A stretch of 11,118 nt of DNA, from assembly GCA_019115185.1 (NCBI GenBank), contig DXDZ01000064.1, forward strand, positions 1 to 11,118, read 5' to 3'. This document shows positions 1 to 11,118 of this stretch, in pieces. The stretch is from Candidatus Agathobaculum merdipullorum (GTDB lineage Bacteria > Bacillota > Clostridia > Oscillospirales > Butyricicoccaceae). The notes beneath the pieces are model-generated. The model was given only the letters and a program-made list of their open reading frames with translations, ran no database searches and was not told where the DNA came from. Both the position numbers and the translations under genes were made by a program. How positions within the stretch are numbered: the stretch's first letter is position 1; every line of letters begins with the position of its first letter.

Positions 1-846
1 ATCGCCCTGATCGCAGGCGCGATTTTCGACAACGCGGGCTGGGTGGCCTTCTCGGCCTACTTCATTGGCGTGCTGGCGATTATTGTATCCGGCATCATGC
101 TCAAGAAGTTCAGGATGTTCGCGGGCGAACCGGCTCCGTTCGTCATGGAGCTGCCGAGCTATCACATGCCGACCGCGCGCAACGTGCTCCGCTCGATGGG
201 CGAGCGCGGCGGATCGTTCATCCGTAAGGCAGGCACCGTTATTCTGCTCAGCACGGTTGTGCTGTGGTTTTTGCAGGCTTACGGCTGGGAAAACGGCGCG
301 TTCGGTTCGGTTTCCGACATCAACAACAGCGTGCTTGCTGCGATCGGCAACGGAATTGCGCCGCTGTTTGCGCCGCTCGGCTGGGGCAACTGGCAGAATG
401 CGGTCGCGTCGGTCACCGGCCTGATTGCTAAGGAAAATGTGGTTGCCACCTTTGGCCAGACGCTTGGCTTTGCCGAGGTTGCCGAGGACGGTGTGGAGAT
501 TTGGAGCCAGCTGGCGGCTTCTTTCACTCCGGTCAGCGCGTTCTCGTTCATGTGCTTTAACCTGCTGTGTGCGCCGTGCTTCGCGGCGATGGGCGCGATC
601 AAGCGCGAGATGAACAACGCCAAGTGGACGGCGTTCGCCATCGGCTACATGTGCGTGTTTGCATACTGCGTGGCGCTGATGGTGTACCAGTTCGGCGGTC
701 TGTTCACGGGCGAGGTTTCCTTCGGCCTCGGTACGGTTGCCGCGGTTCTCGTGCTGGCGCTGATAATTTTCCTGCTGGTGCGCAAGCCGGCGAAGGCGGA
801 CGACACGGCGGAGCTGCGCCGTATGAGCGTGCAGGCGAACGGCTGA
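1..846 (+). CDS. feoB: Ferrous iron transporter FeoB, C-terminal membrane portion (5' end outside window)
   Basis: Frame 1 is open from base 1, so track ORF 43..846 is only the internal part. Polytopic hydrophobic protein with FeoB-type segments (GGSFIRKAGTVILLSTVVLWFL, GLIAKENVVATFG, LCAPCFAAMGAIKREM). Followed by the small Cys-rich peptide gene that typically trails feoB in Firmicutes. Confidence 0.85.
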   Translation: MALIAGAIFDNAGWVAFSAYFIGVLAIIVSGIMLKKFRMFAGEPAPFVMELPSYHMPTARNVLRSMGERGGSFIRKAGTVILLSTVVLWFLQAYGWENGAFGSVSDINNSVLAAIGNGIAPLFAPLGWGNWQNAVASVTGLIAKENVVATFGQTLGFAEVAEDGVEIWSQLAASFTPVSAFSFMCFNLLCAPCFAAMGAIKREMNNAKWTAFAIGYMCVFAYCVALMVYQFGGLFTGEVSFGLGTVAAVLVLALIIFLLVRKPAKADDTAELRRMSVQANG

Positions 847-906
847 TTTGGGGCTTGTCCGCAGAGCAATCCTGTTTTACAATGAAAAGGAAAGGAGGCG
901 AAACAG

Positions 907-1077
907 ATGACGACATTGATCGTGGGCCTGTTGGTGGCGCTGCTGGTGTTCTTGGCTGCGCGGTCGGTGGTGCGCCAGTCCAAGACGGGCGGATGCAGTG
1001 GATGCAGTGGCTGTTCGGGCTGCGGCGGCAGCTGCGGCTGTCATACCGACACGCCTCCCGAAGAGCAAAACCGATAA
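907..1077 (+). CDS. FeoB-associated Cys-rich membrane peptide (56 aa, below ORF-track cutoff)
   Basis: ATG 907 preceded by AGGAGG (893-898, 8-nt spacer). Product is MTTLIVGLLVALLVFLAARSVVRQSKTGGCSGCSGCSGCGGSCGCHTDTPPEEQNR: one TM helix, then a CSG/CGG repeat. TAA at 1075-1077. Confidence 0.7.
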   Translation: MTTLIVGLLVALLVFLAARSVVRQSKTGGCSGCSGCSGCGGSCGCHTDTPPEEQNR

Positions 1078-1090
1078 CCAATTTCTTTCA

Positions 1091-1130
1091 GCCGTCCGGC
1101 GCAATGCGCCGGGCGGCTTTTGTGTGTTTG
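1091..1130 (+). terminator. Rho-independent terminator of the feoB operon
   Basis: 12-bp GC-rich stem 1091-1102 / 1106-1117 (one G-U pair), 3-nt loop AAT, followed by TTTTGTGTGTTTG. Confidence 0.7.
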
Positions 1131-1187
1131 CAGTCGGTCACGGACGGAGGGTGCGCGGCATAGACTGGGGAGAAAGGTGGTTTTTCT

Positions 1188-2030
1188 ATGGTGATCCATG
1201 TTGTTCAGCCGGGGGATTCCCTGTATCGCATCGCGCAAGCCTACCATGCGCCGCTCCAGCTGCTGATCCAGCAGAACGAGCTGCACGAGCCTTACCGGCT
1301 CACGCCCGGGCAGACAATCGTCGTGCCGCAGCCCGTGCAGGTACATACCGTCCGGCAGGGGGATACGCTGTCCGGCATTGCCGCGCAGCATAATACGACC
1401 GTGCTGAAACTGCTGCAAAACAATCCGCAGCTCGGCGGTGGGGACCGCATCTGGCCGGGACAGACGCTGGTGATCTCCTATGGCCCCAAGCTGGGCACGT
1501 TTGCGGTCAACGGCTATGCGTATCCGAACATTGACCAGCGAGTTTTGCGTAAAACGCTGCTCTATCTAACGTACTTATCGGTGTTTTCCTACGGATTTGA
1601 CAGTCTGGGCCGCATCCTGCCGCAGAATGCGGAGGCGCTCACGCGCATGGCGCGGCAATACGGCGTGCTGCCGCTGCTGGTGCTGACGACGCTCGGCGAG
1701 GACGGTCAGTTTTCGGGCGAGCGGGCGCAGCAGCTGTTGCGCGACCCGGTCGCACGCGGTGCACTGATTGAAAATCTGGCACAGACCATCGCGGCGCAGG
1801 GCTTCGCAGGGGTGGATATCGACTTCGAGTATATCCCGTCCGAGGATGCGGCGGCCTATGCCGACTTTGTCCGCGCGGTGCGCGCGCGGCTCGAGCCGTC
1901 CGGGCTGACGGTCATGGTCGCGCTCGCGCCCAAGACCTCGGCCGACCAGCCGGGGCTGCTGTACGAGTCGCACGACTACGCGGCACTCGGCGCGGCAGCG
2001 AACGATGTACTGCTCATGACGTATGAATAA
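1188..2030 (+). CDS. LysM-LysM-glycoside hydrolase family 18 protein (YaaH/SleL-like spore peptidoglycan hydrolase), 5' fragment truncated by prophage insertion
   Basis: ATG 1188 follows GGAGAAAGGTGG. Two LysM repeats (VVQPGDSLYRIAQAY..., HTVRQGDTLSGIAAQH...) precede a GH18 region with catalytic GVDIDFEY. The ORF ends ...NDVLLMTYE + TAA (2028-2030), inside the conserved GH18 MxYD/E motif and exactly where GC-rich coding sequence gives way to AT-rich DNA. The rest of the barrel is missing. Confidence 0.8.
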   Translation: MVIHVVQPGDSLYRIAQAYHAPLQLLIQQNELHEPYRLTPGQTIVVPQPVQVHTVRQGDTLSGIAAQHNTTVLKLLQNNPQLGGGDRIWPGQTLVISYGPKLGTFAVNGYAYPNIDQRVLRKTLLYLTYLSVFSYGFDSLGRILPQNAEALTRMARQYGVLPLLVLTTLGEDGQFSGERAQQLLRDPVARGALIENLAQTIAAQGFAGVDIDFEYIPSEDAAAYADFVRAVRARLEPSGLTVMVALAPKTSADQPGLLYESHDYAALGAAANDVLLMTYE

Positions 2031-2045
2031 GTTATTTTATGATAC
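2021..2045. other. Candidate att junction (attL/attR core) of the prophage
   Basis: Imperfect inverted repeat GTATGAATAA (2021-2030) N6 TTATGATAC (2037-2045) at the composition break, 25-50 bp from the recombinase stop codon (2070-2072). The exact crossover dinucleotide cannot be determined from one junction. Confidence 0.4.
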
Positions 2046-2069
2046 ATACAATTGACCGGCTAAGGTTTA

Positions 2070-3620
2070 CTATTCAAATCGTCGTTCGATTTGGATATAG
2101 ATGGTTGCGTCGCCAGCACTGCGCTCGGCGGCGTTTTTTTCGTATGTGATGCGGCTGACTACACTTTTCAGCAGGTCGTTTCGCTCCTGCGCGGTCGCGG
2201 CGTTGGGATAGGCTTCGATCACATGCTCCAGACGCGGGCGCATGGCAGGTGCGCCGCGGCGCTCTTGGTCGATTGCCAGCGCGCGGGCGCTGGCCTTGGC
2301 AAGTGCGCGGTCCAGCTCGGCGAGCTGGCTGTCCAGTTGGCGGCGGCGGGAAACGAAATACTCCGGCGTGTAGACCTCCTGCTCGACCAGCTCGGCGGCG
2401 CGGTCAAGCTGTGCGCGCAGCTTGCGCTGGGCGGCGTGGATCGCGCGAATCTCTTCGTGCGCCTGCGCGGCGCGTGCGTCCAGTTCGCGTTCGACTGTAT
2501 TCTGATGGTCGATGTCCACCTCGTACTCGGCCAGCCATAGCCGCAGCGCGTGCAGCACCGCGTCCTCCACGTCGGCGCAGAATGAGCTGACATTATTGCA
2601 GTCTGCCCAGCGGCAGTCCAGCCGACCGGTGCAGGGCAGGGCAGCGGCCGGTGCACCGTAGGTCATCACATGGCCGCACTTGGCGCAATACAGCAGGCCG
2701 ACAAACGGGTTTTTGAGTTCGTGGTTTTTCTTGAGCGGCAAGCCGGGGGTGTTGTCCAGCAGACGCTGCACGGTACCAAAATCCTCGTCACTGACGAGCG
2801 CTTCATGCAGGCCGCGCGCCTTGACGTAGTCATCTACATACCGGCGCGGCTTGGTCAGCACACCGTCGCGCACGGTGGGCTGCGCGGCCTTGCGTCCCCA
2901 TGTCACATAGCCCGCGTACAGGCAGTTGCGCAGCACGTTGCGCACCGACTGGGCGCTCCACGCGACACCAGCAGAGGTGCGTTCCCCGCGTGCATTGAGA
3001 CGGCAGGCAATGACATAGCAGCCGACACCTTGCAGACGCAAGTCGAAAATCTCACGCACGATTGCGGCCTGTGGCGGGTTTGGTTCAAGCGTGTAGCCTT
3101 TGCCGTTCCGCACCTTGACACGGAAATAGCCGTAGGGGTCGGTCTTGCCCATGTATTTGCCCTCTTTGACCGAGGCGATGCGCCCGGCGATCATGCGGCG
3201 CTTGATGGTCTTATATTCGCGGCGCGACATGAACAGGCCGAACTCGAAGTACTCCTCGTCGAATTCGTTGGCGGGGTCGTAGGTTTTTGCCGGGGTGATG
3301 ATGCGTGTGCCAGAGTATTTGAACGCCTGCGCGACGATGCCCTGGTCGATGCTGTCGCCGCGGGCGAGACGTTCGATCTCCATGACCAGCACGCCGTCCC
3401 ACTGACCGGCCTCGACCTCGGTCAGCAGCCGCTGCATCTGCGGCCGGGCGGCGATGGTTTCGCCCGAGACAATTTCCTCATAGATCCCGCCGATCTCCAG
3501 CCCCATGCGGCGCGCGAGTGCGAGCAGCGCGGCACGATGCCGGGCAAGGGTTTCGCCCTCGCCGCGGGCTTCGGCTTCGGCGTCCGCGCGCGATTTTCGG
3601 AGGTATATCAGATATGCCAT
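2070..3620 (-). CDS. Large serine recombinase (phage integrase)
   Basis: 516 aa. N-terminal resolvase-type domain (AYLIYLRKSRAD with presumptive nucleophile Ser10, VLVMEIERLARG), a recombinase domain, and a Cys cluster/zinc ribbon (YCAKCGHVM...PCTGRLDCRWADC). The long coiled-coil-like C-terminal region is typical of large serine recombinases. SD AAAGGTGA precedes ATG 3620. Confidence 0.9.
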   Translation of the reverse strand: MAYLIYLRKSRADAEAEARGEGETLARHRAALLALARRMGLEIGGIYEEIVSGETIAARPQMQRLLTEVEAGQWDGVLVMEIERLARGDSIDQGIVAQAFKYSGTRIITPAKTYDPANEFDEEYFEFGLFMSRREYKTIKRRMIAGRIASVKEGKYMGKTDPYGYFRVKVRNGKGYTLEPNPPQAAIVREIFDLRLQGVGCYVIACRLNARGERTSAGVAWSAQSVRNVLRNCLYAGYVTWGRKAAQPTVRDGVLTKPRRYVDDYVKARGLHEALVSDEDFGTVQRLLDNTPGLPLKKNHELKNPFVGLLYCAKCGHVMTYGAPAAALPCTGRLDCRWADCNNVSSFCADVEDAVLHALRLWLAEYEVDIDHQNTVERELDARAAQAHEEIRAIHAAQRKLRAQLDRAAELVEQEVYTPEYFVSRRRQLDSQLAELDRALAKASARALAIDQERRGAPAMRPRLEHVIEAYPNAATAQERNDLLKSVVSRITYEKNAAERSAGDATIYIQIERRFE

Positions 3621-3666
3621 AAAATCACCTTTTTTCAGTATATGGGGCGGGAAAATGGATAAAAAC

Positions 3667-3680
3667 AGAACATTTGTTCG
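3667..3680 (-). promoter_or_regulatory. Cheo-box-like (Gram-positive LexA/DinR) operator upstream of the recombinase gene
   Basis: The minus strand reads CGAACAAATGTTCT, a 13/14 match to CGAACRNRYGTTYC with a perfect GAAC-N4-GTTC core. It lies 47 nt upstream of the recombinase ATG and abuts a weak candidate promoter TTTTTA (3665-3660) 17 nt TATACT (3642-3637). Confidence 0.5.
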
Positions 3681-3691
3681 GTAAAAGCGGG

Positions 3692-3736
3692 TGTAAAAAT
3701 GCAGACCACAACAAACGGTGTTCGGTTGTGGTCTGC
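3692..3736 (-). terminator. Rho-independent terminator downstream of ltp
   Basis: Perfect 12-bp stem 3701-3712 / 3725-3736. On the minus strand it is followed by ATTTTTAC. Located 9 nt after the ltp stop codon. Confidence 0.75.
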
Positions 3737-3744
3737 GGGGTTAT

Positions 3745-4281
3745 TTAGTAGCCTGCGGCCGTGACGCCGTATTCGGCTTGCTCCTGCGTAAAGCCATCGT
3801 ACACAAGTTGGTCGATCAATTCTTGACGTGAAAACGACATCATTTCCAGATAGCTTTGAGCGGATTTGGCGGCCTGCTCATTCCAATCTGCGCCGCAATT
3901 ATCTACTGCAAATGTTGCATCTTCAGTGGAGTAGCCTTCAAATTCAAGCTGGCTAATTAGGCCGCTACGCGAAAAAGCTGTAAAAGAAAGATAGCTTTCA
4001 GCCGATCCCAATGCATTTTTCTGGCCCATAGTCATGGTGTCGGCGGGTTCTTCCGGCTCTTCAACCGGTGCAGCAGTCTGCTCAGTCTGCTGTCCATCTT
4101 CTGGCTCGGCATCTGTCAGCTCGGTTGTGGTGGTCTGCGTTTGCTCAGCGGTCTGCTGGTCATCGCCCTTGGTTTCGGTATCATCCGAAGGAGCAAACAT
4201 GCCGATAACAAGCACGATTACGATTGCCCATACCCACCAGCGTTTGTAAAACGGTTTTTTGGCCTTTGCTTTTTCTTCCAT
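3745..4281 (-). CDS. ltp: Ltp-family host-surface superinfection-exclusion protein (TM-anchored, two Ltp repeats)
   Basis: 178 aa. N-terminal TM helix (WWVWAIVIVLVIGMF, no lipobox Cys), an acidic T/E/Q-rich linker, then two ~48-aa repeats matching the Ltp repeat (QKNALGSAESYLSFTAFSRSGLISQLEFEGYSTEDATFAV; AAKSAQSYLEMMSFSRQELIDQLVYDGFTQEQAEYGV). SD AAGGGGGA precedes ATG 4281. Confidence 0.85.
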   Translation of the reverse strand: MEEKAKAKKPFYKRWWVWAIVIVLVIGMFAPSDDTETKGDDQQTAEQTQTTTTELTDAEPEDGQQTEQTAAPVEEPEEPADTMTMGQKNALGSAESYLSFTAFSRSGLISQLEFEGYSTEDATFAVDNCGADWNEQAAKSAQSYLEMMSFSRQELIDQLVYDGFTQEQAEYGVTAAGY

Positions 4282-4300
4282 GATAAATCCCCCTTAAAGA

Positions 4301-4328
4301 TTGACAAAATTAGCCAATCATGTATAAT
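4301..4328 (+). promoter_or_regulatory. Near-consensus sigma-A promoter driving a short rightward RNA
   Basis: TTGACA (4301-4306), 16-nt spacer, TATAAT (4323-4328). Its -10 overlaps a candidate leftward ltp promoter: TTCACA 4349-4344, 17 nt, TATACA 4326-4321. Confidence 0.6.
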
Positions 4329-4334
4329 GGTGTT

Positions 4335-4405
4335 GGAGGACTGTGTGAAACACTCCATATTTGCCCGTTCCGGTGGTGGTGCACTGGGACGGGCGTTTTT
4401 TATTT
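4335..4405 (+). ncRNA. Predicted ~70-nt small RNA (orphan promoter-terminator unit)
   Basis: The predicted start lies ~7 nt after the -10 element. A 13-bp terminator stem (4363-4375 / 4382-4394) has two G-U pairs that would be A-C mismatches on the opposite strand. It is followed by G TTTTTT A TTT (4395-4405). No credible ORF: the only candidate, GTG 4345, runs through the terminator. Confidence 0.5.
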
Positions 4406-4939
4406 CGGGTATCTGCCGTTTGGTAATTCATAGACAGCACAGGTGATTACCGCACTGGTAAACTCGTAATCACTCAGCTTTGGATCGTTCTCGTCCAGAT
4501 CCCAGCCACCTACTTGGATGAACGTCGTATGCTCAAAGCGTGCCAACACTTCAAGTCCATGTGTCAATCGCTTGAAAATCATGTCTTTTACATCGCGTTC
4601 AGATAAAGAAATATTACTGGCGGGAAGCCAGCCAATGTATTGACCATTATATAGAACCTTGACAGCTGTTCCGTCATACTTATTCTTTGGGTCAGCCTGC
4701 AAAGTCAGCCATTGGCCTTTCATGTTACGGTTAATCACTTTTTGCGGGTCAGAGCCGTCGTGAACATGATTAACGCCAGACAGAGTAAACTCCATCGTCC
4801 TCATTAGCTTTGTGCCATCTTTACTGGTTTGCGGAAAGTCTGGGATAGGGATTGTGTCATACTGGCGTTGTTCTCGGATACCCTTGACGATGCCCCAGAT
4901 GAAAAGAGCAACAATAACAATAACTATCAGTGTACACAA
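4400..4939 (-). CDS. Membrane-anchored HIRAN-domain protein (start uncertain; track ORF extends to TTG 5080)
   Basis: A TM helix (LIVIVIVALFIWGIV) is followed by KGIREQRQ and a domain with the HIRAN signature (SGVNHVHDG...GQWLTLQADPKNKYDGTAVKVLYNGQYIGWLPA...LEVLARF). The preferred start is TTG 4939, 9 nt after AAAGGGG. TTG 5080 has no SD and would overlap the rightward promoter at 5012-5040. Confidence 0.6.
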   Translation of the reverse strand: MCTLIVIVIVALFIWGIVKGIREQRQYDTIPIPDFPQTSKDGTKLMRTMEFTLSGVNHVHDGSDPQKVINRNMKGQWLTLQADPKNKYDGTAVKVLYNGQYIGWLPASNISLSERDVKDMIFKRLTHGLEVLARFEHTTFIQVGGWDLDENDPKLSDYEFTSAVITCAVYELPNGRYPK

Positions 4940-5011
4940 GGATTTCAACCCCTTTGCGGTGTCCAAATTGAACACCGATTTTTTAATGCTATGCAATATA
5001 TTGATTTGCCC

Positions 5012-5040
5012 TTGCCAAAACCCAAGATGTGGTGTATTAT
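5012..5040 (+). promoter_or_regulatory. Rightward promoter of the 49-aa ORF / anti-repressor-gene transcript
   Basis: TTGCCA (5012-5017), 17-nt spacer, TATTAT (5035-5040). It shares the pattern TTGNCAAAA...TGTATWATG with the promoter at 4301. Confidence 0.55.
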
Positions 5041-5080
5041 GAAAAACACAAACGCTTGTTCGGTTTCTGGAGGGGATCAA

Positions 5081-5230
5081 ATGACGGATCGAGAAAAATA
5101 TATGCTCAAGCTGATTCGGACTTCGGCTGATCCGTCAGCTGCCATGGAAAAGGTCAGGAAGATTCTTTCTTTTGATCCGTCTCCAACACACGAAGCGCAG
5201 CGTCCTGCAAGGCAGGAGAAGCGTTTCTGA
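5081..5230 (+). CDS. Small hypothetical protein (49 aa) convergent with and overlapping the repressor gene
   Basis: GGAGGGG (5069-5075) lies 5 nt before ATG 5081. Product: MTDREKYMLKLIRTSADPSAAMEKVRKILSFDPSPTHEAQRPARQEKRF. It has its own promoter upstream and an intrinsic terminator downstream. The last 77 nt overlap the 3' end of 5154..5495 on the other strand. Confidence 0.5.
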   Translation: MTDREKYMLKLIRTSADPSAAMEKVRKILSFDPSPTHEAQRPARQEKRF

Positions 5231-5495
5231 ACAATTCAAGCAGCTCGTTTTCTTCGGCGCTTAATCCTGCGTCCTCTTCGGAGGACGCATTTTTATTTTT
5301 CGCGCGCCCCATCAGAAAATCTAAAGAAACATCAAAGTAGGTTGCGATTTTTAGCTTAATATCATCGGGGACAGAGCGTGCACCATTTTCGTATTGAGAT
5401 AGCGTGTTGTTTTTAATGCCCAAAATTTTTGATAGTTCAATCTGGCTCAGATTTCGAGCATTTCGCAATGATGTGATTGTTTGGCCTATTGTCAT
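5154..5495 (-). CDS. XRE-family HTH repressor (CI-like)
   Basis: 113 aa. HTH_XRE core (LRNARNLSQIELSKILGIKNNTLSQYENGARSVP), a linker, and a C-terminal helix (ENELLELFRNASPALQDAALRVL). SD GGGAGGAG lies 7 nt before ATG 5495. Divergent from a Cro-like gene across an operator-rich region. Confidence 0.9.
   Translation of the reverse strand: MTIGQTITSLRNARNLSQIELSKILGIKNNTLSQYENGARSVPDDIKLKIATYFDVSLDFLMGRAKNKNASSEEDAGLSAEENELLELFRNASPALQDAALRVLETDQKKESS
5269..5300 (+). terminator. Plus-strand intrinsic terminator embedded in the repressor coding sequence
   Basis: Perfect 8-bp stem GCGTCCTC / GAGGACGC (5269-5276 / 5281-5288) with a UUCG tetraloop, then A TTTTT A TTTTT (5289-5300). There is no U-tract on the minus side. 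It coincides with repressor linker residues K66-A76 (KNKNASSEEDA). Confidence 0.65.
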
Positions 5496-5640
5496 TGCAA
5501 AGCTCCTCCCAATTTCTCATTTTGTTAAAGTATAACACATATTTTCAAAATGTGAATATCATTGCACAAAATGAGAAATAATACTTGACATTCGCAAAAT
5601 GAGAAAGTATAATAAAATCACGAATTGAGAAAGGAGGAGA
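5496..5640. promoter_or_regulatory. Lysis-lysogeny switch: divergent promoters plus reiterated operator 12-mers
   Basis: Rightward: TTGACA (5585-5590) 17 nt TATAAT (5608-5613), then AGGAGG. Leftward candidate: TTCACA (5556-5551) 16 nt TGT-TATACT (5537-5529). Exact 12-mer CAAAATGAGAAA at 5567-5578 and 5595-5606, with an inverted copy at 5513-5524. 10/12 copies at 5546-5557 and 5621-5632. Confidence 0.8.
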
Positions 5641-5892
5641 ATGATGATGAGATTGGATGTCGTTCGGACGGAAATGGGTATTACACAAGAAAATATGGCA
5701 AATCGGCTTAATATTGCCACTACAACATATTGCCAATATGAGAATGGAAAGCGAATGATTCCTCGAGATATTGCGGAAAAGGTTGCAAAGATTCTTTGTT
5801 GCCCCGTAGAAGAAATTTTTTTACCTGTAAAATTCACAATTTGCGAACATGAGGCGGACGAGCCGGAAAAGGAGGCGGGGCAAAGGAGGTGA
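5641..5892 (+). CDS. Cro-like XRE-family HTH protein
   Basis: 83 aa. HTH_XRE core (VRTEMGITQENMANRLNIATTTYCQYENGKRMIP). There are three tandem ATGs (5641/5644/5647) after AGGAGG (5633-5638), so the true start may be 5644 or 5647. First gene of the rightward operon. Confidence 0.85.
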   Translation: MMMRLDVVRTEMGITQENMANRLNIATTTYCQYENGKRMIPRDIAEKVAKILCCPVEEIFLPVKFTICEHEADEPEKEAGQRR

Positions 5893-5898
5893 GAGAGG

Positions 5899-6015
5899 AT
5901 GAAGAAAGAAAAACCCCACTTGCGGCTACAAGTGAGGTTAAACCAGACTTTCGCCGAATTTACGGAGTGCATGCCATGCATCGCTGCATGGCAGGGCGAG
6001 CGTTCACCTTCTTAA
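5899..6015 (+). CDS. Hypothetical mini-protein (38 aa)
   Basis: AGGAGGTGA (5884-5892) lies 6 nt before ATG 5899. Product: MKKEKPHLRLQVRLNQTFAEFTECMPCIAAWQGERSPS. Its 3' end overlaps the minus ORF 5960..6253. Confidence 0.35.
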   Translation: MKKEKPHLRLQVRLNQTFAEFTECMPCIAAWQGERSPS

Positions 6016-6253
6016 CAAAAGATTCAGATGTGCGATTATGTGTAATTGAATCTTCCGGTGCGGCCAGACCGAACGGGCTGAGTTTCTTCCACTGAGCCAG
6101 TGCGATCAGTCCGGAGGATGGCTTGACGAAACTAATTGCACCATCAGCGCTTGTAAATGCGCTGGTAACAGGGCTTGTCAGGCTACTCTTCACTACGGTC
6201 GAACGCAGCGAAGTGATAGCACCGGACATGATATCATTCTTCGTCGCGTTCAT
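5960..6253 (-). CDS. Hypothetical protein (97 aa), reverse-oriented in the early region
   Basis: Longest open frame in the 5.9-6.5 kb stretch. ATG 6253 follows a weak, close SD (GGAGAAAT). About 65% purine at first codon positions (hand count). S/T/A-rich with no family recognised. A competing plus-strand TTG ORF at 6123..6278 cannot be excluded. Confidence 0.4.
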   Translation of the reverse strand: MNATKNDIMSGAITSLRSTVVKSSLTSPVTSAFTSADGAISFVKPSSGLIALAQWKKLSPFGLAAPEDSITHNRTSESFVKKVNARPAMQRCMACTP

Positions 6254-6485
6254 ATTTCTCCAAATTTGTTACCCATAAGTGGGGCTGCGTCATTTCTGCG
6301 TAGCTCTCACGGTCGCCCGTGAGTTCAGACTGTGCCTTCAACCACGAGGGTTGCTCCGTGTCCAGTCGTTACACCTTCCGCATCAGCGGCTTGGCTCGGC
6401 GTTATCTGGTTGTGATGTCAGTATACAACACGAACAGGGAAAACACAAGCAACGTCCGGATATGGGAGAGAGGAGGTGAGAGGGG

Positions 6486-6626
6486 ATGGAAATCATCATT
6501 AAAGCAACGTCTGAGGAAGTCGCCGCCCTTGTAGTAGCGTTGCAAGGGCGGCAAGAAATCATCGCGGATCAGGTTGCGAAGAATATCACTGCTTGTCTTG
6601 ATCGAGCAATGCGTGATATTTCTTGA
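6486..6626 (+). CDS. Hypothetical mini-protein (46 aa)
   Basis: AGGAGGTGA (6471-6479) lies 6 nt before ATG 6486. Product: MEIIIKATSEEVAALVVALQGRQEIIADQVAKNITACLDRAMRDIS. It contains the 6522-6552 hairpin and overlaps 6586..6759 by 41 nt. Confidence 0.4.
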   Translation: MEIIIKATSEEVAALVVALQGRQEIIADQVAKNITACLDRAMRDIS

Positions 6627-6759
6627 GCATTTCCGCTGTGACTTTCGAGGAAAGCTCAGCTTGTTTTTGGATCATTCGGCCAATGCTATCATCCGGTAAG
6701 TTTGCGGTGCAGCTTTCCAGTGCGTCTTTGCGGAGTTGCTCAAAATCAATATTTTGCAT
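6586..6759 (-). CDS. Hypothetical helical mini-protein (57 aa) with its own leftward promoter
   Basis: AAAGGAGG (6775-6768) lies 8 nt before ATG 6759. Promoter: TTGCCC (6812-6807) 17 nt TGC-TAATAT (6792-6784). Product: MQNIDFEQLRKDALESCTANLPDDSIGRMIQKQAELSSKVTAEMLKKYHALLDQDKQ. Confidence 0.5.
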   Translation of the reverse strand: MQNIDFEQLRKDALESCTANLPDDSIGRMIQKQAELSSKVTAEMLKKYHALLDQDKQ

Positions 6760-6834
6760 CAGTTTTGCCTCCTTTCTCGTTCCATATTAGCACACAGAAC
6801 GGGAAGGGGCAAGAAGCGATAGGGAGGTGAGCGC

Positions 6835-7014
6835 ATGGACCAATCCTTGCAATTTCATGATGAAATCATCTTGAGGTTTAGGCAGGGTCGATTGCAGGAA
6901 GTCATTATCGACGGTATACGGCAAAATGATGTGAAAGCCTTTTCAATTGCGGCATCTCCGACGCAAGTCGCTTCCTATCTGATTGAGCATTCGACCGTAT
7001 ATTCAGATTCCTGA
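6835..7014 (+). CDS. Hypothetical mini-protein (59 aa)
   Basis: GGGAGGTGA (6822-6830) lies 4 nt before ATG 6835. Product: MDQSLQFHDEIILRFRQGRLQEVIIDGIRQNDVKAFSIAASPTQVASYLIEHSTVYSDS. It is just below the ORF-track length cutoff and is followed 28 nt later by a short HTH gene. Confidence 0.45.
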   Translation: MDQSLQFHDEIILRFRQGRLQEVIIDGIRQNDVKAFSIAASPTQVASYLIEHSTVYSDS

Positions 7015-7042
7015 GAACAAGAACCGGAAAGGGGTGAATAAC

Positions 7043-7249
7043 ATGAAAACCATCAAGCGATACCGCGAAGCGCGCGGCATTAAGCAGACCGAATTGGCCG
7101 CGCACTTCGGTATTGCGCAGTCAACCGTGGTCAAGTGGGAAAGTGATGGTAAGTACCCGCCCTGCCAGGTGATGCCCGAACTTGCGGCCTTCCTCGGCTG
7201 CACGACCGACGAACTGTACGCGCACAAACCAGAAAAGGAGGCAATTTAA
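7043..7249 (+). CDS. Short XRE-family HTH protein (68 aa)
   Basis: The true start is taken as ATG 7043 (SD GGAAAGGGGTGA), not the track start 6983. HTH core: IKRYREARGIKQTELAAHFGIAQSTVVKWESDGKYPP. Confidence 0.8.
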   Translation: MKTIKRYREARGIKQTELAAHFGIAQSTVVKWESDGKYPPCQVMPELAAFLGCTTDELYAHKPEKEAI

Positions 7250-7292
7250 CCTGCTATGCCCGCATTATACCACCATGAAAGGAGGGGACACC

Positions 7293-7745
7293 ATGAACCC
7301 AGAGTATCAAAATGCGTGGAAAACCGCCCGCGAAAGGGCAGATCTGACGCAGGAAGCGGCCGCCGAGCTGGTAGACGTGTCGGCAAAGTCGATTGGCTAC
7401 TATGAATCCGGCGCGCGGCACATGACGCCGCAGGTCGCCGCGCAGCTGGCCGACGCCTATCATGCGCCGTGGCTGCGCAACCTGTACTGCACGGAATGTC
7501 CAATCGGCTGTCACCGCAGCCTGCCCACCGAGCCGACTGATCTGCGGGAAGCTGCTATCGGTGCACAGTGTGATTTCCGAGCAGCGGAAATTGGGAAACG
7601 CTTGGATCGGATGATGGAGATTGTAAGAGACGGACGGGTTGACGAGATCGAAATGCCGGAATTTATGGCGATCTGCGACCGGTTCCGTGAGATGCAATAT
7701 ACGCTGGCTAAGTTTGAACTGCTCGTCGAGATGCTGTGTAAGTGA
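7293..7745 (+). CDS. XRE-family HTH protein with Cys-containing C-terminal domain (150 aa)
   Basis: The start is taken as ATG 7293 after GAAAGGAGGGGA (track start 7182 is unlikely). HTH core: ARERADLTQEAAAELVDVSAKSIGYYESGARHMTP. It is followed by YCTECPIGCH and a helical tail. Confidence 0.8.
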   Translation: MNPEYQNAWKTARERADLTQEAAAELVDVSAKSIGYYESGARHMTPQVAAQLADAYHAPWLRNLYCTECPIGCHRSLPTEPTDLREAAIGAQCDFRAAEIGKRLDRMMEIVRDGRVDEIEMPEFMAICDRFREMQYTLAKFELLVEMLCK

Positions 7746-7785
7746 CCAAGCCCTGATGAATACAATACCCAGAGGAGGTGCGCTT

Positions 7786-8016
7786 ATGGCAAACAAAACA
7801 CGCAGGCTGGTCATGGAGCAGGAATTCACGCTGAAAAGCGGCCGCAAAGCCGTTTGTCAGATCTACGATACCGAGGATACCGTGCCGAAGTCCAACGTCG
7901 AAGAGCACAAGAAGTGCGTCGACCACATGAAGGAGGTCGCCGCGAATATCTTCATGCGCGCGGAAATGGCAAAACAGCAAAAGGAAAGCGCCCAGAGCGG
8001 CGGCAACCGCGACTGA
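7786..8016 (+). CDS. Hypothetical protein (76 aa)
   Basis: AGAGGAGGTG (7771-7780) precedes ATG 7786, so the upstream part of track ORF 7639..8016 is discounted. No family recognised. Confidence 0.6.
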   Translation: MANKTRRLVMEQEFTLKSGRKAVCQIYDTEDTVPKSNVEEHKKCVDHMKEVAANIFMRAEMAKQQKESAQSGGNRD

Positions 8017-8098
8017 GCGCAAGCGAAATATTACTTATTTACAGGATACCGGAAAATCCCGGCGCTGTCAAGCGGCTGCGCCGGGGGAAAGGGAAAGT

Positions 8099-8299
8099 AT
8101 GAAACTCGTAGAGGTGAAATTTGAGATCCCGGAGGATCTGGAGCCGCGCATTGCGGCGTTAGCTGCGGAAATGGGGCTATCTTTTGATTGGGCCGCGCAG
8201 CTATTGCTGTGGGATGGATATGTCACACACTTGCGCAGCTCGATTGAGCGGGCGGAAAAAGAACTGCGAGAGCCGTTAGCGGAGGAGGTGGCGGTATGA
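8099..8299 (+). CDS. Hypothetical protein (66 aa)
   Basis: ATG 8099 follows GGGGGAAAGGGAAAG. The stop overlaps the next start (ATGA at 8296-8299), suggesting translational coupling. Confidence 0.55.
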   Translation: MKLVEVKFEIPEDLEPRIAALAAEMGLSFDWAAQLLLWDGYVTHLRSSIERAEKELREPLAEEVAV

Positions 8300-8403
8300 T
8301 CTACGCCATCCTCGCCATGCTCGGGGTGGGCTGCGCCTACCTCGCCCTTGGCATGCTGGTGGACAGGCTCACCCAGCCGATGGAAAGGCGGGGGCGCAGG
8401 TGA
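8296..8403 (+). CDS. Hypothetical single-TM mini-protein (35 aa)
   Basis: GGAGGAGGTG (8281-8290) precedes ATG 8296. Product: MIYAILAMLGVGCAYLALGMLVDRLTQPMERRGRR. Both ends are coupled: ATGA at its start, and GTGA joining it to the next gene at 8400-8403. Confidence 0.4.
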   Translation: MIYAILAMLGVGCAYLALGMLVDRLTQPMERRGRR

Positions 8404-8870
8404 GAACGTTTTCGCCGAAAACACTGGCTGAGATTCGCGACAGTTACCGTCGTGCTGCTGATCCAGATGAGCAGGTCTATGTATTGGCTGGGTTATATTT
8501 CTGTAACGTGGAGGATATACAGCGTGCGCTCGGATTGCCAGTAAGGAAACCATGGGAAAAGCATTCGTCAGTTCGCACTGTCCAGATTCCTACGCATCAT
8601 GCGTGGACAAAAACGCAGGACAAACGTCTCGCTATGCTCTATAAGCAAGGACTGAACATCGGAGAGATTGCCGACAAAATAGGGAACAGAAGGAAAGATG
8701 TGCAAGATCGGCTGTATGTGCTGCGTAAACTGGGCGTGATACAGGCGCGGCCCCGCTGTGACTGTGCCGCGCAGGGGATGGCTGTCGAGCTGGAAAACCT
8801 ATGCGACGCCTTGCGCGAACTGATAGCGGTGCTACGTGTACTGTCCGAGAAGGGAGGCGGCGATGCGTGA
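8400..8870 (+). CDS. Putative DNA-binding protein (GcrA/Myb-like HTH segment)
   Basis: 156 aa. The GTG start overlaps the preceding stop. The segment WTKTQDKRLAMLYKQGLNIGEIADKIGNRRKDVQDRLYVLRKLG resembles a GcrA-type or Myb-type HTH. Confidence 0.55.
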   Translation: MRTFSPKTLAEIRDSYRRAADPDEQVYVLAGLYFCNVEDIQRALGLPVRKPWEKHSSVRTVQIPTHHAWTKTQDKRLAMLYKQGLNIGEIADKIGNRRKDVQDRLYVLRKLGVIQARPRCDCAAQGMAVELENLCDALRELIAVLRVLSEKGGGDA

Positions 8871-9718
8871 ACTTTATCCTGAACACCGAACTGAGCCGCT
8901 GGCTAAGGGATGAGAAAATCGGCGGCGACCGTGAGGCGATCTTCCTGTATGCGCTCTGGACGTGGTGCGAGAAAAACGCAGCCAACGAGCATAACTACCA
9001 CGAGGGGCGGTACTGGTCGTACAACAGCCTGCGCGGCCTGACGCGCATTTTCCCGTGGACGAAGAGAGAACTTGAAAACACGGTCAACCGGCTGCGCGAC
9101 GCCGGTCTGATCCTGACCGCCAAACTCTCCAAAGACCCCAAGGACACGACGCTGTCTTACACGGTTATCGCGGAAAAAATAGGCGTTTCCCCGTTCAGGG
9201 AAACGGTGTCCCCCACGGGGGAAACGGTGTCCCCCACCGGGGACGCATCCCCGTCCCCCAGCGGTGAAACGGTGTCCCCGCACGGGGACAACCTGTCCCC
9301 CACGGGGGAAACATTAGATGAACAATATAAGACACATATAGTACTACAGGCAAATAAGAATAAACAAGACGCAAATAAGGACGGGCAGCAGGAAAATAAG
9401 CTGACGCCGCGGCAGGCCATGGAGCTGTACAACCAGATCTGCGTTGATCTGCCGCCTTGCATCCGACTGACCGACAAGCGGCAGCGCAGTGTGCGCGCGC
9501 TGTTCAAGAAGGGCATCACGCCTGAGCAGCTGGAAAGCTCATTCCGCATCGCGCAGTCGAGTGAGTTCTGCCGGGGCAAAAACAAGACAGGCTGGCGTGT
9601 TGACTTCGACTGGCTGCTGGACGAGAACAACATCGTCAAGGTGCTCGAGGGCAAGTATGGCGGCAGCGCCATGCCGCCGACCAAGCAGGAAGGGAGTGGC
9701 CGTAAATGGCTGAAATGA
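8867..9718 (+). CDS. Phage replication initiator / replisome organizer (contains ori iterons)
   Basis: The start is taken as GTG 8867 (GTGA overlap with the preceding stop), with GGGAGG 8852-8857 nine nt upstream. The C-terminal WRVDFDWLLDENNIVKVLEGKYG resembles the conserved C-terminal domain of Gram-positive phage replication proteins. There is an internal 7-aa/21-bp repeat block, and a DnaB helicase gene lies immediately downstream. Confidence 0.75.
   Translation: MNFILNTELSRWLRDEKIGGDREAIFLYALWTWCEKNAANEHNYHEGRYWSYNSLRGLTRIFPWTKRELENTVNRLRDAGLILTAKLSKDPKDTTLSYTVIAEKIGVSPFRETVSPTGETVSPTGDASPSPSGETVSPHGDNLSPTGETLDEQYKTHIVLQANKNKQDANKDGQQENKLTPRQAMELYNQICVDLPPCIRLTDKRQRSVRALFKKGITPEQLESSFRIAQSSEFCRGKNKTGWRVDFDWLLDENNIVKVLEGKYGGSAMPPTKQEGSGRKWLK
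9184..9310 (+). repeat. Iteron array (putative phage origin of replication) inside the replication gene
   Basis: GAAACGGTGTCCCC at 9200, 9221 and 9266. Degenerate copies at 9287 (GACAACCTGTCCCC) and 9239 (GGGGACGCATCCCC). Spacing is 21 bp or multiples. Inverted repeat CGTTTCCC/GGGAAACG at 9184-9191/9198-9205. An AT-rich tract follows at 9311-9400 with reiterated AAATAAG. Confidence 0.7.
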
Positions 9719-11007
9719 TGGAGCTGTACCAGCAGGCCGAAAACAGTGTGCTGGGCGTGCTGATTGCCGAGGCCGAGGTGAACGCCGCCGAGGTGTTCTC
9801 GCGGGTAAAGCCCGAGGACTTTGTCACCGGCATCTCACGGTCGATCTTTGAGACCTGCCGCGAGATGTACCGACAGGGCGATGCAATCGACCCGCTGACC
9901 GTCAAGGCAGCCTGCGGCAGCGAGTACATGGCGTGGCTCAAGGAGTTGGACCTGATCACGCCCAGCTCGCGCTACTGCTCGGCCTATGTGGACAAGCTGC
10001 TTGAGCTGTCCAAGCGCTACCGGCTGCAAAAGCTGTTCCGCGAAGCGCTCGACCAGAACCTTGCAGGCGTGCCGATGGAGGAGCTGATCGGCAAGGTTGA
10101 GTGCATGAACGAGGTGCTCGCGGCGGACAACGACCGGCGCAGCCGCACGATGAAAGACTTGATATTTGGCTTTTTCAGCCGCGTCGGACAAAAGCGTACA
10201 TTTCTCGATTGGGGCTTCGACGAGCTCAACCGCTATGTCAAGGTCAAGCGCAAGCACTATGTTGTCATCGGTGCGCGACCCTCGGCGGGCAAGACCGCCT
10301 TTGCGCTGCAAACCGCGATGTACATGGCGCAAAAGCACAACGTCACGTTTTTCTCGCTGGAAACCGATGAGGAGACCATCGAAGATCGCATCATGGCGGC
10401 TGCTGCCTGCATCGATATGGCGCATATCCAGTCCGGCGAGCTGAGCGAGGACGAGCTGCGGATGCTGGTCGAGAAAAAGAGCACGCTGCTCGACCGGAAT
10501 TTTCATTTTTACGAAGCGACCGGCATCACCGCCGAGGAAATCCGCGCGGTGACGAACCGGAACAAGTCGGACGTGATCGTGATCGACTATTTGCAGCTCA
10601 TCCGCGCCCGTGGGCGGCACAAGGACGAGTACGGCGAGATCACCGAGATCACGAAGGCCTTGCAGCGGCTGGCAAAAAGCGGAGTTTGCGTGATTGCACT
10701 CAGCCAGTTGTCCCGCGGCGGCGAGGGCATGAGCGCGCTGCGCGGTTCCGGTCAGATCGAACAGGACGCGGATGTGGTCATGATGCTGGACTACCCAGAC
10801 GAAGATGACATCAAAAGCGAGGAGGAGAAGGCGGACTTCAAAGCGGGTCGCCTGCGCGTGATCGACATCGTTAAGAACAAAAATGGACGGCGCGGTCCGC
10901 TGCAGTTCTGGTTCTTCGGTGCGCAGCAGCGGTTCCTCGCCCAGTGGAAGGGCTTTTATCAGACCCAGCTGCGGATGATGGAGGACGAAACCGACGCATC
11001 CGCGTAA
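9706..11007 (+). CDS. dnaB: Replicative DNA helicase, DnaB family
   Basis: 433 aa. DnaB N-terminal domain (AENSVLGVLI...), Walker A GARPSAGKT, VIVIDYLQL, ALSQLSR and RGSGQIEQDADVVMML motifs. The start overlaps the end of the upstream gene by 13 nt. Confidence 0.9.
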   Translation: MAEMMELYQQAENSVLGVLIAEAEVNAAEVFSRVKPEDFVTGISRSIFETCREMYRQGDAIDPLTVKAACGSEYMAWLKELDLITPSSRYCSAYVDKLLELSKRYRLQKLFREALDQNLAGVPMEELIGKVECMNEVLAADNDRRSRTMKDLIFGFFSRVGQKRTFLDWGFDELNRYVKVKRKHYVVIGARPSAGKTAFALQTAMYMAQKHNVTFFSLETDEETIEDRIMAAAACIDMAHIQSGELSEDELRMLVEKKSTLLDRNFHFYEATGITAEEIRAVTNRNKSDVIVIDYLQLIRARGRHKDEYGEITEITKALQRLAKSGVCVIALSQLSRGGEGMSALRGSGQIEQDADVVMMLDYPDEDDIKSEEEKADFKAGRLRVIDIVKNKNGRRGPLQFWFFGAQQRFLAQWKGFYQTQLRMMEDETDASA

Positions 11008-11025
11008 CAAAATGGAGGTACATAC

Positions 11026-11118
11026 ATGAGTAAGATGAAGAAAATCCGTCTCTGCCTTGAGGTGCAAGGCCTCGGGCAGGATGATTTGGGCACGCCGTGC
11101 CCTGCGGGCGTCTGCCTG
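11026..11118 (+). CDS. Hypothetical protein, 5' fragment (runs off window)
   Basis: GGAGG (11014-11018) lies 7 nt before ATG 11026. The frame is open to the window end (MSKMKKIRLCLEVQGLGQDDLGTPCPAGVCL...). Confidence 0.4.
   Translation, partial: MSKMKKIRLCLEVQGLGQDDLGTPCPAGVCL

Follow-up and report, generated by a model that had tools for sequence, protein, structure and literature searches.

A candidate LexA-controlled small antirepressor gene convergent with a short XRE repressor gene in an Agathobaculum prophage

INTRODUCTION

Most Bacillus arbitrium phages, phi106, phiW23, Wbeta, BMBtp14, and Waukesha92 among them, carry an "extended arbitrium" module composed of AimX, AimC, and AimL (Kabel et al., bioRxiv 10.1101/2025.11.23.689978; PDB 9sf2, 9iaq). 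In this module, aimC encodes a short XRE repressor of 80 to 140 amino acids (aa) with a five-helix helix-turn-helix (HTH) domain, an unstructured linker, a two-helix oligomerization domain, and no autocleavage; aimL is divergent and cro-like; and aimX is a helical open reading frame (ORF) of 29 to 80 aa that lies just downstream of a LexA site in the phi106 family and is convergent with, and overlaps, aimC. AimX binds the C-terminal domain of AimC as a heterodimer, so that AimC neither oligomerizes nor binds DNA. Recoding the overlap had no effect, and changing the aimX start codon to a stop codon with the antisense transcript kept abolished function, leaving the RNA largely inconsequential; the authors liken the mechanism to that of SinI/SinR and call AimX proteins highly divergent (10.1101/2025.11.23.689978). 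Here, we examine an 11,118-nucleotide (nt) stretch of DNA from Candidatus Agathobaculum merdipullorum (NCBI GenBank assembly GCA_019115185.1, contig DXDZ01000064.1, positions 1 to 11,118; the whole stretch is called the window), in which a 49-aa ORF runs convergently into the 3' end of the gene for a short XRE repressor.

Lambda OOP and P22 sar are noncoding cis-antisense RNAs of lysogeny control that act on cII and ant and not on the maintenance repressor. Protein effectors are also known. The Sar protein of SPbeta-like phages acts by DNA mimicry on an integrase-fold repressor (10.1101/2025.11.27.690993), and the transcription factor-small ORF modules of Vibrio and enterobacterial phages (Silpe et al., 2023, PMC10432266), as well as Qtip of VP882, use a small protein that inactivates the master repressor and whose expression is the regulated step. 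Many gut Firmicutes prophages have short XRE repressors without a cleavage domain, and the route by which DNA damage induces them is mostly unknown; the locus described here offers a concrete candidate route.

An earlier note on this DNA had read the ORF, its promoter, and a hairpin terminator as an anti-repressor device acting by antisense pairing or polymerase collision. We retain the anti-repressor role as the best reading of the unit, although the antisense RNA is probably not the main effector. With a probability that we put at roughly 60%, and judging from sequence comparison, structure models, and analogy, the unit would be a LexA-repressed gene for a small antirepressor protein, convergent with the 3' end of the gene for a short, noncleavable XRE repressor. 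The interaction between the two proteins and the direction of its effect are what we infer; the LexA-type box, the presumed input signal, was missing from the earlier note.

RESULTS

The small ORF has the substitution pattern of a protein-coding gene

Our comparative set comprised 23 related prophage loci that carry the small ORF, with 16 distinct sequences, 14 of which entered the substitution counts. The loci (cited by number where one must be singled out) come from prophages with serine or tyrosine integrases and varied cargo genes. With the exception of L025, which lacks the repressor gene, all 23 have the ORF converging on an XRE repressor gene and overlapping it, and this overlap is the same 77 nt as in the window wherever gene tables were returned. 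Among about 5.8 billion proteins searched, 15 homologues had been called as genes, and almost every one of these is exactly 49 aa long. The promoter, Shine-Dalgarno sequence, 49-aa ORF, and overlaps all lie where the earlier note had placed them (Table 1), and the unit as a whole recurs in the 23 loci.

Codons 1 to 24 lie outside the repressor gene, and here the variable sites are distributed 8/5/15 over codon positions 1, 2, and 3, with third positions varying more often (15/24) than the others (13/48; p = 0.005). The ratio of nonsynonymous to synonymous differences per site (pN/pS) is 0.30 in the frame of the ORF and 0.5 to 2.4 in the other five frames. In comparisons with the distant relatives L027 and L030, pS reaches saturation (about 1.0) and pN is 0.32 to 0.38. 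Judged by this pattern, the small ORF is a genuine protein-coding gene, with purifying selection on its nonoverlapping half, and what the earlier note had held out as a possible small protein is borne out by the conservation of the ORF. Variation in the overlap (codons 26 to 49) instead tracks the repressor frame, with a pN/pS of 0.13 for the repressor and 3.1 for the small ORF. These substitution patterns confine the functional peptide to residues 1 to about 30 and make residues 31 to 49 an unconstrained tail antisense to the repressor C terminus. In the AlphaFold2 model of the small protein, helices at residues 3 to 14 and 18 to 30 (predicted local distance difference test score [pLDDT] of about 88) are followed by a disordered tail.

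When 1.84 billion cluster representatives were searched with a profile, only a small family came up, with the motif MT[DE]+EKxLIxLIRxSxDPxxA, and its distant homologues sit at the same genomic position. Neither the small protein nor its distant relatives matched a credible family in Pfam, PHROGs, NCBIfam, PDB sequence, or Foldseek PDB searches, and none of 50,697 phage records was matched in blastn or tblastn searches. That the family is missing from Pfam, PHROGs, and NCBIfam illustrates why annotation overlooks overlapping small genes of this kind. An ORF finder also proposed a 133-aa ORF ending at the same stop codon (4829-5230); we rejected it as the gene, since conservation, Shine-Dalgarno sequence, and homologues all begin at ATG 5081.

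Three sequence types of the small ORF were found, all convergent with an XRE repressor gene. The type represented by L031 (L031 to L033) combines a different, 45-aa ORF (MNYETELLEIIRGSEYSADL...) with a different repressor C-terminal domain, while promoter, LexA box, 5' untranslated region, 77-nt overlap, and hairpin are as in the window type. In the L027 type, the peptide and its convergent position are retained, the ORFs no longer overlap, and the antisense overlap is down to about 32 nt.

It is also conceivable that the unit has no function and that ORF, promoter, and hairpin arose by chance from repressor codons and AT-rich intergenic sequence. Matches resembling promoters and terminators are indeed common (a terminator scan of the window found 5, compared with 4.2 expected in shuffles), but conservation of the unit in 23 loci, its coding signature, the suppressed synonymous variation in its hairpin stem described below, and the distant homologues at the same position make this extremely improbable.

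One locus is rearranged. In L025, a 1.6-kb metagenomic contig, the repressor gene is missing, and the first 25 codons of the small ORF run on in frame into the C terminus of the cro-like gene (695-868, protein P0097) via the microhomology GAAAAGGT..AAGATTCTTT (EKV.KIL; compare window 5149-5171 and 5776-5798). The fusion could be either a natural repressor-deletion (virulent) variant or an assembly chimera.

A conserved LexA-type box lies just past the -10 element

The small-gene promoter matches the consensus at 10 of 12 positions. Among the 14 aligned loci, TGTATTAT is invariant, as is the CTT of the -35 region, and the G that follows occurs in at least 90%; a purine-rich, GGAGG-type element is present in all of them, and Shine-Dalgarno sequence and ATG are conserved. 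Between promoter and Shine-Dalgarno sequence lies a LexA-type box that begins 9 nt after the -10 element and spans approximately +2 to +16 of the predicted transcript. The window contains no other strict match, compared with 0.04 expected. Across the same loci, the half-sites of the box are invariant or nearly so, and the 4-nt spacer reads GCTT, ACTT, ATAC, ATTT, ATAT, ATTA, or GGAT; perfect CGAAC-N4-GTTCG boxes occur in L026 and L030. Fixed half-sites around a variable spacer are the signature of a dimeric protein site and not of an RNA element. The box also matches the consensus of the clostridial LexA operator, GAACnnnnGTTT/C (PMC4234289).

Given this motif and its placement, LexA would be expected to bind here, so that the small gene would be off in the lysogen through host LexA and on during the SOS response. 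We favor LexA over the phage repressor as the silencer because the box is present and, in an operator scan, no copy of the immunity operator lies near the small-gene promoter. A second LexA-type box precedes the serine integrase gene of the window (Table 1), and equivalent boxes lie 17 to 48 nt upstream of serine- or tyrosine-integrase genes in L007, L008, L020 to L023, L026, L030, and L033, which suggests that integrase expression may also be SOS induced.

A predicted terminator is written into the linker codons of the repressor gene

The predicted transcript of the small gene is about 250 nt long and has its own conserved promoter and intrinsic terminator, and by its sequence 147 nt of it are complementary to the 3' end of the repressor gene. 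The earlier note had described the terminator as an 8-bp hairpin from 5269 with a UUCG loop and a U-tract; hairpin, loop, and tract are present, although the stem has 9 bp and begins at 5268. Six of the nine pairs are GC, the predicted energy is -16.9 kcal/mol (z = -5.7 compared with shuffles), and U5AU5 follows. Because no T-run follows the hairpin on the minus strand, the sequence identifies it as a one-way, plus-strand terminator. Hairpin and T-tract fall in repressor codons 66 to 76 (KNKNASSEEDA). These had been called flexible linker codons, in agreement with the AlphaFold2 model, where helices end at residue 61 and restart at residue 80 with a disordered linker between them.

We compared the stem with the 37-nt flank from the small-ORF stop to the hairpin (5231-5267), which codes for the repressor only, in 14 sequences. 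Third codon positions of the repressor vary at 0/4 sites in the stem arms and at 12/12 in the flank (Fisher p = 5.5e-4), and variable nucleotides number 1/16 and 24/37, respectively (p = 7e-5). The sole stem change is A/G, and pairing is kept (A-U to G-U), whereas all four loop positions vary, with eight loop sequences found. A T-run of at least 5 is always present, written as AAA lysine (or AAT asparagine) codons and never as AAG, although lysine codons elsewhere in the phage are AAG 69 times and AAA 49 times. The stem GCGTCCTC...GAGGRCGC and the T-run are also kept in L031 to L033, despite the different repressor C-terminal domain and small-ORF type. The L027 type, too, has a strong plus-strand terminator, located within the last ~10 codons of the repressor gene, with the T-tract once more corresponding to a Lys-Lys pair. 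The hairpin and U-tract that the earlier note had proposed to look for in homologues are both kept, then, and synonymous variation is suppressed there. On this substitution evidence the hairpin is selected as nucleic acid, and it is well supported that a terminator is overprinted on tolerant repressor codons. The locus offers a clean natural case in which the codons for a disordered protein linker also carry, on the opposite strand, an intrinsic terminator.

The purposes of the terminator are probably to give the mRNA a protected, defined 3' end and to insulate the co-oriented lytic operon from read-through from the SOS promoter; either role would explain its conservation without an antisense function. 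Alternatively, the unit could be mainly a cis-antisense RNA or a source of convergent-transcription interference, with the ~250-nt RNA pairing with the last 147 nt of the repressor mRNA, or polymerases colliding, and the ORF incidental or accessory. Such an RNA would fit the layout of promoter, ORF, and terminator as the earlier note gave it, the nucleotide-level selection on the intragenic terminator, the overlap fixed at 147 nt across loci, and the L027-type terminator that is still inside the repressor gene, and lambda OOP and P22 sar provide precedents. In addition, the terminator scan found no minus-strand terminator after the repressor stop codon, so the repressor transcript probably continues through the small gene, which would give the two RNAs extensive complementarity. 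We nevertheless consider it quite unlikely that RNA is the main effector. The nonoverlapping 5' half evolves as a protein and not as an RNA, Shine-Dalgarno sequence and ATG are conserved, and distant relatives keep the peptide and not the extent of the overlap (147 nt versus about 32 nt). Furthermore, by analogy, the recoding and start-to-stop tests of AimX/AimC gave the RNA little role. An auxiliary antisense or collision effect on repressor expression, secondary to that of the protein, is possible.

Two further observations concern this region. The terminator junction (window 5262-5300, repressor residues 62 to 79) coincides with a mosaic breakpoint: repressors with different HTH domains have linker and C-terminal domain in common, and the converse is also found. 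The antisense terminator also imprints a K-K-(A/S)-(P/S)-S peptide motif on the repressor, as KKAPS or KKASS in the linker and as KKSPS at the C terminus in L027 (1975-2006).

The small protein as a candidate partner of the repressor

The 113-aa repressor matches HTH_3 in Pfam (5.9e-13), and its Pfam matches are of the HTH_3 type only, with no S24 peptidase or autocleavage domain. AlphaFold2 models an HTH domain at residues 1 to 61 (helices from 3 to 61), a linker at 62 to 79 whose pLDDT falls below 50 at residues 70 to 75, and C-terminal helices at 80 to 90 and 94 to 111. Since the protein lacks an S24 domain and its gene has no ImmA-like protease gene next to it, an SOS signal must reach it indirectly. 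Within the repressor family, the HTH domain is highly variable, and linker and two-helix C-terminal domain are nearly invariant. In Foldseek, the repressor model is matched best by the SinR chain of the SinR/SinI complex (1b0n_A), and the phi106 AimC-AimX complex (9sf2_A) and BMBtp14 AimC (9iaq_A) are matched as well. A repressor profile gives 6e-10 against 9sf2_A and 1.8e-9 against 9iaq_A, a similarity that is significant only over the generic HTH domain.

In the AlphaFold2 models, the small protein is a helix hairpin with dimensions similar to those of the repressor's two-helix C-terminal domain, and the two have a helix-1 motif in common, [ST]xxExx[LM]LxL[IF]R. Across loci, a change of small-ORF type goes together with a change in the type of the repressor C-terminal domain, and the exchange of HTH domains is independent of this. 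This co-change fits a specific partnership between the small protein and the C-terminal domain.

The small protein may also be real and SOS induced and yet act elsewhere, on LexA or RecA, on host division, or in some other function, its position reflecting module packing. In favor of another target, the small protein has no sequence or structural family assignment, its mimicry of the repressor C-terminal domain is statistically weak, and small phage proteins acting on LexA exist, e.g., GIL01 gp7 (PMC4551915). However, convergence with an XRE repressor gene is kept in three sequence types that look unrelated and over large divergence, and the small-ORF type changes with the repressor C-terminal type while the HTH domain swaps independently. 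The repressor has no other visible induction route, with neither an S24 domain nor an adjacent ImmA-like protease, and, in contrast to SOS division inhibitors, the small protein lacks a transmembrane segment. On balance, another target appears unlikely.

Several results weigh against the small protein being a LexA-controlled antagonist of the repressor. The LexA motif was taken from other Clostridia and not from host lexA or recA promoters, and L027-type relatives have no recognizable LexA box. With hhalign, residues 1 to 35 of the small protein fall on repressor residues 78 to 110 with a probability of only 2.9% (E = 0.016), and a hidden Markov model score is likewise weak compared with 2000 shuffles (p about 0.026), although in all three scoring repressors the best match lies in the first helix of the C-terminal domain. 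The register is suggestive, but profile-profile and shuffle tests are not significant, and we do not claim homology between the two. Furthermore, no solved chain, phi106 AimX (9sf2) included, is detectably related in sequence to the small protein at E up to 10, and the model of the small protein has no significant fold match in Foldseek PDB. The co-variation of small-ORF and C-terminal types is partly forced because the genes physically overlap and are linked. Finally, the strong nucleotide-level conservation of the intragenic terminator, together with the fixed 147-nt overlap, could also reflect a functional antisense role.

Neighboring elements of the control region

Coordinates of all features are collected in Table 1. 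Matches to CAAAATGAGAA number five in the window, compared with 0.33 expected by chance; four occupy the region between the repressor and cro-like genes, where they overlap both promoters, and these copies are presumably the immunity operators. On the 3' side of the cro-like gene follow more HTH genes and a DnaB-type helicase gene.

Upstream of the small-gene promoter stands a 17-bp palindrome that occurs as one copy per locus in 20/33 loci and is unique in the window (0.06 expected by chance). Different cargo (moron) genes are inserted at the junction that it occupies. We rejected the palindrome as a terminator, as its RNA fold is weak (-8.5 kcal/mol) and the downstream T-run is not conserved, and as an immunity operator, as it is not related to the CAAAATGAGAA repeats and stays conserved among phages with differing HTH domains. 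It may be an operator for a conserved factor or a recombination or module boundary. A second HTH_3/HTH_31 protein of 150 to 157 aa (window 7287-7745, plus strand) is conserved in L006, L007, L020, L030, and L031 despite their differing immunity repressors, and this protein is a candidate binder of the palindrome.

Farther upstream, a perfect sigma-70-type promoter precedes a predicted transcript of ~70 nt. This unit (4301-4405) is 81 to 96% identical in 11 other loci, with promoter and stems invariant and the terminator loop variable. In most loci, it directly abuts the palindrome and small-gene promoter, and a cargo gene lies between them in the window, L006, and L020. When the whole window was compared with Rfam at E up to 1, neither this unit nor any other part gave a match, and no trans target of 4335-4403 rose above shuffled controls. 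We regard it as a candidate new phage small RNA or leader, placed where Bacillus phages have aimR-aimP, and its expression may be constitutive.

The window covers the left end and lysogeny module of the prophage, and its nearest genome matches are Agathobaculum assemblies. On the host side, a LysM and GH18 gene breaks off at position 181/317 of the Pfam GH18 profile, ~40 nt before the end of the serine integrase gene, and the prophage therefore appears to be inserted within the GH18 gene, which is possibly of the spore-cortex-lytic type.

Table 1. Positions of features in the window (+ and -, plus and minus strand)
Feature	Position	Strand	Description
Host FeoB, C-terminal fragment			On the host side
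Host LysM + GH18 gene	1188-2030	+	Breaks off at 2030
Serine integrase gene	2070-3620	-	Start codon 3620
Second LexA-type box	3667-3680		AGAACATTTGTTCG; 47 nt upstream of serine integrase start codon
Superinfection-exclusion lipoprotein gene	3745-4281	-	Ltp type
RNA-unit promoter	4301-4328	+	TTGACA-16-TATAAT; perfect sigma-70 type
Predicted ~70-nt transcript	4335-4403	+	5' hairpin GGAGG...CUCC; strong, plus-strand-only terminator 4362-4395, then T-run
Cargo gene, weakly HIRAN-like	Ends 4400	-	Start probably TTG 4939
17-bp palindrome	4959-4975		GTGTCCAAATTGAACAC; upstream of small-gene promoter, just before the ribosome-binding site of the minus-strand cargo gene
Small-gene promoter	5012-5040	+	TTGCCA-17-TATTAT
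LexA-type (Cheo/SOS) box	5049-5062		CAAACGCTTGTTCG; minus strand reads CGAAC-AAGC-GTTTG, i.e., GAAC-N4-GTTT
Shine-Dalgarno sequence	5069-5075	+	GGAGGGG; 5 nt before ATG 5081
Small ORF	5081-5230	+	49 aa; ATG 5081 to TGA
XRE repressor gene	5154-5495	-	113 aa
Intrinsic terminator of small gene	5268-5300	+	Hairpin 5268-5289, 9-bp stem, UUCG loop, then TTTTTATTTTT (5290-5300)
Presumed immunity operators	5514-5605		Four CAAAATGAGAA-type copies, both orientations; repressor-cro intergenic region
Repressor promoter	5556-5529	-	Overlapped by operators; back-to-back with lytic promoter
Lytic promoter	5585-5613	+	TTGACA-17-TATAAT; perfect; overlapped by operators
cro-like HTH gene	5641-5892	+	Divergent from repressor gene; Pfam HTH_3 1.8e-8
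Fifth CAAAATGAGAA copy	5734-5744		One mismatch; inside cro-like gene

DISCUSSION

If the small gene is a LexA-repressed antirepressor gene, the switch might work as follows. In the lysogen, host LexA bound to the GAAC-N4-GTTT box just past the -10 element would silence the small-gene promoter; upon DNA damage, LexA cleavage would let that promoter fire, and the resulting ~250-nt mRNA would end at 5297-5300, at the hairpin and U-tract within the repressor linker codons. The conserved N-terminal helix-loop-helix of the 49-aa protein (residues 1 to 30) would then bind the two-helix C-terminal oligomerization domain of the repressor, blocking dimerization and operator binding and de-repressing the cro and early lytic operon, and the integrase would be co-induced via its own LexA box. 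The 147-nt antisense overlap would mainly reflect tight packing, with at most a secondary knockdown of the repressor mRNA.

A bolder version, which we regard as doubtful, makes the mRNA bifunctional, encoding the antirepressor and also acting in cis by antisense pairing or interference, with its reach set by the linker terminator. With the ~70-nt RNA unit and the palindrome, it would make up a control region free of arbitrium that gates SOS induction in prophages of gut Clostridia, and this region is possibly an evolutionary precursor or replacement of the AimR/AimP input.

Among the systems with which the locus may be compared, SinI/SinR (PDB 1b0n) offers the principle proposed here, in that SinR is an XRE-HTH repressor whose C-terminal helical oligomerization domain is occupied by a small helical antagonist. 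The Bacillus subtilis system, however, is a chromosomal developmental switch without LexA control, and sinI lies upstream of sinR in the same orientation. LexA-controlled antirepressors (Tum of phage 186, those of Gifsy/Fels [PMC3121763], AntC of N15, and Sar of SPbeta-like phages [10.1101/2025.11.27.690993]) likewise pair a noncleavable repressor with a LexA-type box at the antirepressor promoter, present here as a motif, and thereby sense the SOS response indirectly; these proteins are unrelated in sequence, and their genes lie elsewhere, neither convergent with nor overlapping the repressor gene. The modules of Silpe et al. and Qtip differ in being driven by a dedicated activator, independent of the SOS response, and in their genome position and protein families.

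As with lambda OOP, a short transcript, here a predicted one, with its own promoter and intrinsic terminator is complementary to the 3' part of the mRNA of a lysogeny regulator (cII in the case of OOP). In contrast to OOP and P22 sar, the 5' half of the transcript here is coding sequence under purifying selection.

The closest comparison is with the extended arbitrium module. As in AimC, a short repressor without autocleavage (here 113 aa) combines an HTH domain, a disordered linker, and a helical C terminus for which oligomerization is predicted; as with aimL, a divergent cro-like gene lies beside it; and as with aimX, a small helical ORF converges on the repressor gene with a 3' overlap and a predicted transcript antisense to it. 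Just upstream of the small ORF, as in phi106, stands a LexA-type motif that is conserved and well placed, here known as a motif only. The ORFs overlap by 77 nt here and by 30 bp in phi106, and a conserved terminator in linker codons is predicted to end the transcript here. Beyond the generic HTH domain, there is no sequence homology, and the host belongs to a gut Clostridia lineage (Agathobaculum type) and not to Bacillus. Upstream of the small gene, aimR and aimP are absent, and the palindrome and the minus-strand HIRAN-like cargo gene take their place, with relatives having another minus-strand cargo gene or the ~70-nt RNA unit there. A 389-aa neighbor in L007 was considered as an AimR-like gene and rejected, as it has no Pfam match and lies on the opposite strand. 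We also rejected phi105 as a Bacillus comparator, as its immunity region is of the ImmR/ImmA type (repressor plus metalloprotease).

The earlier note had called an antisense unit aimed at the maintenance repressor an unusual switch layer, which now appears overstated, given that the design is known from Bacillus arbitrium phages. The evidence fits a unit that would work like the AimX module without arbitrium, and it equally fits the broader class of LexA-controlled antirepressors. The locus suggests that the AimX/AimC design also occurs without arbitrium and outside the Bacilli.

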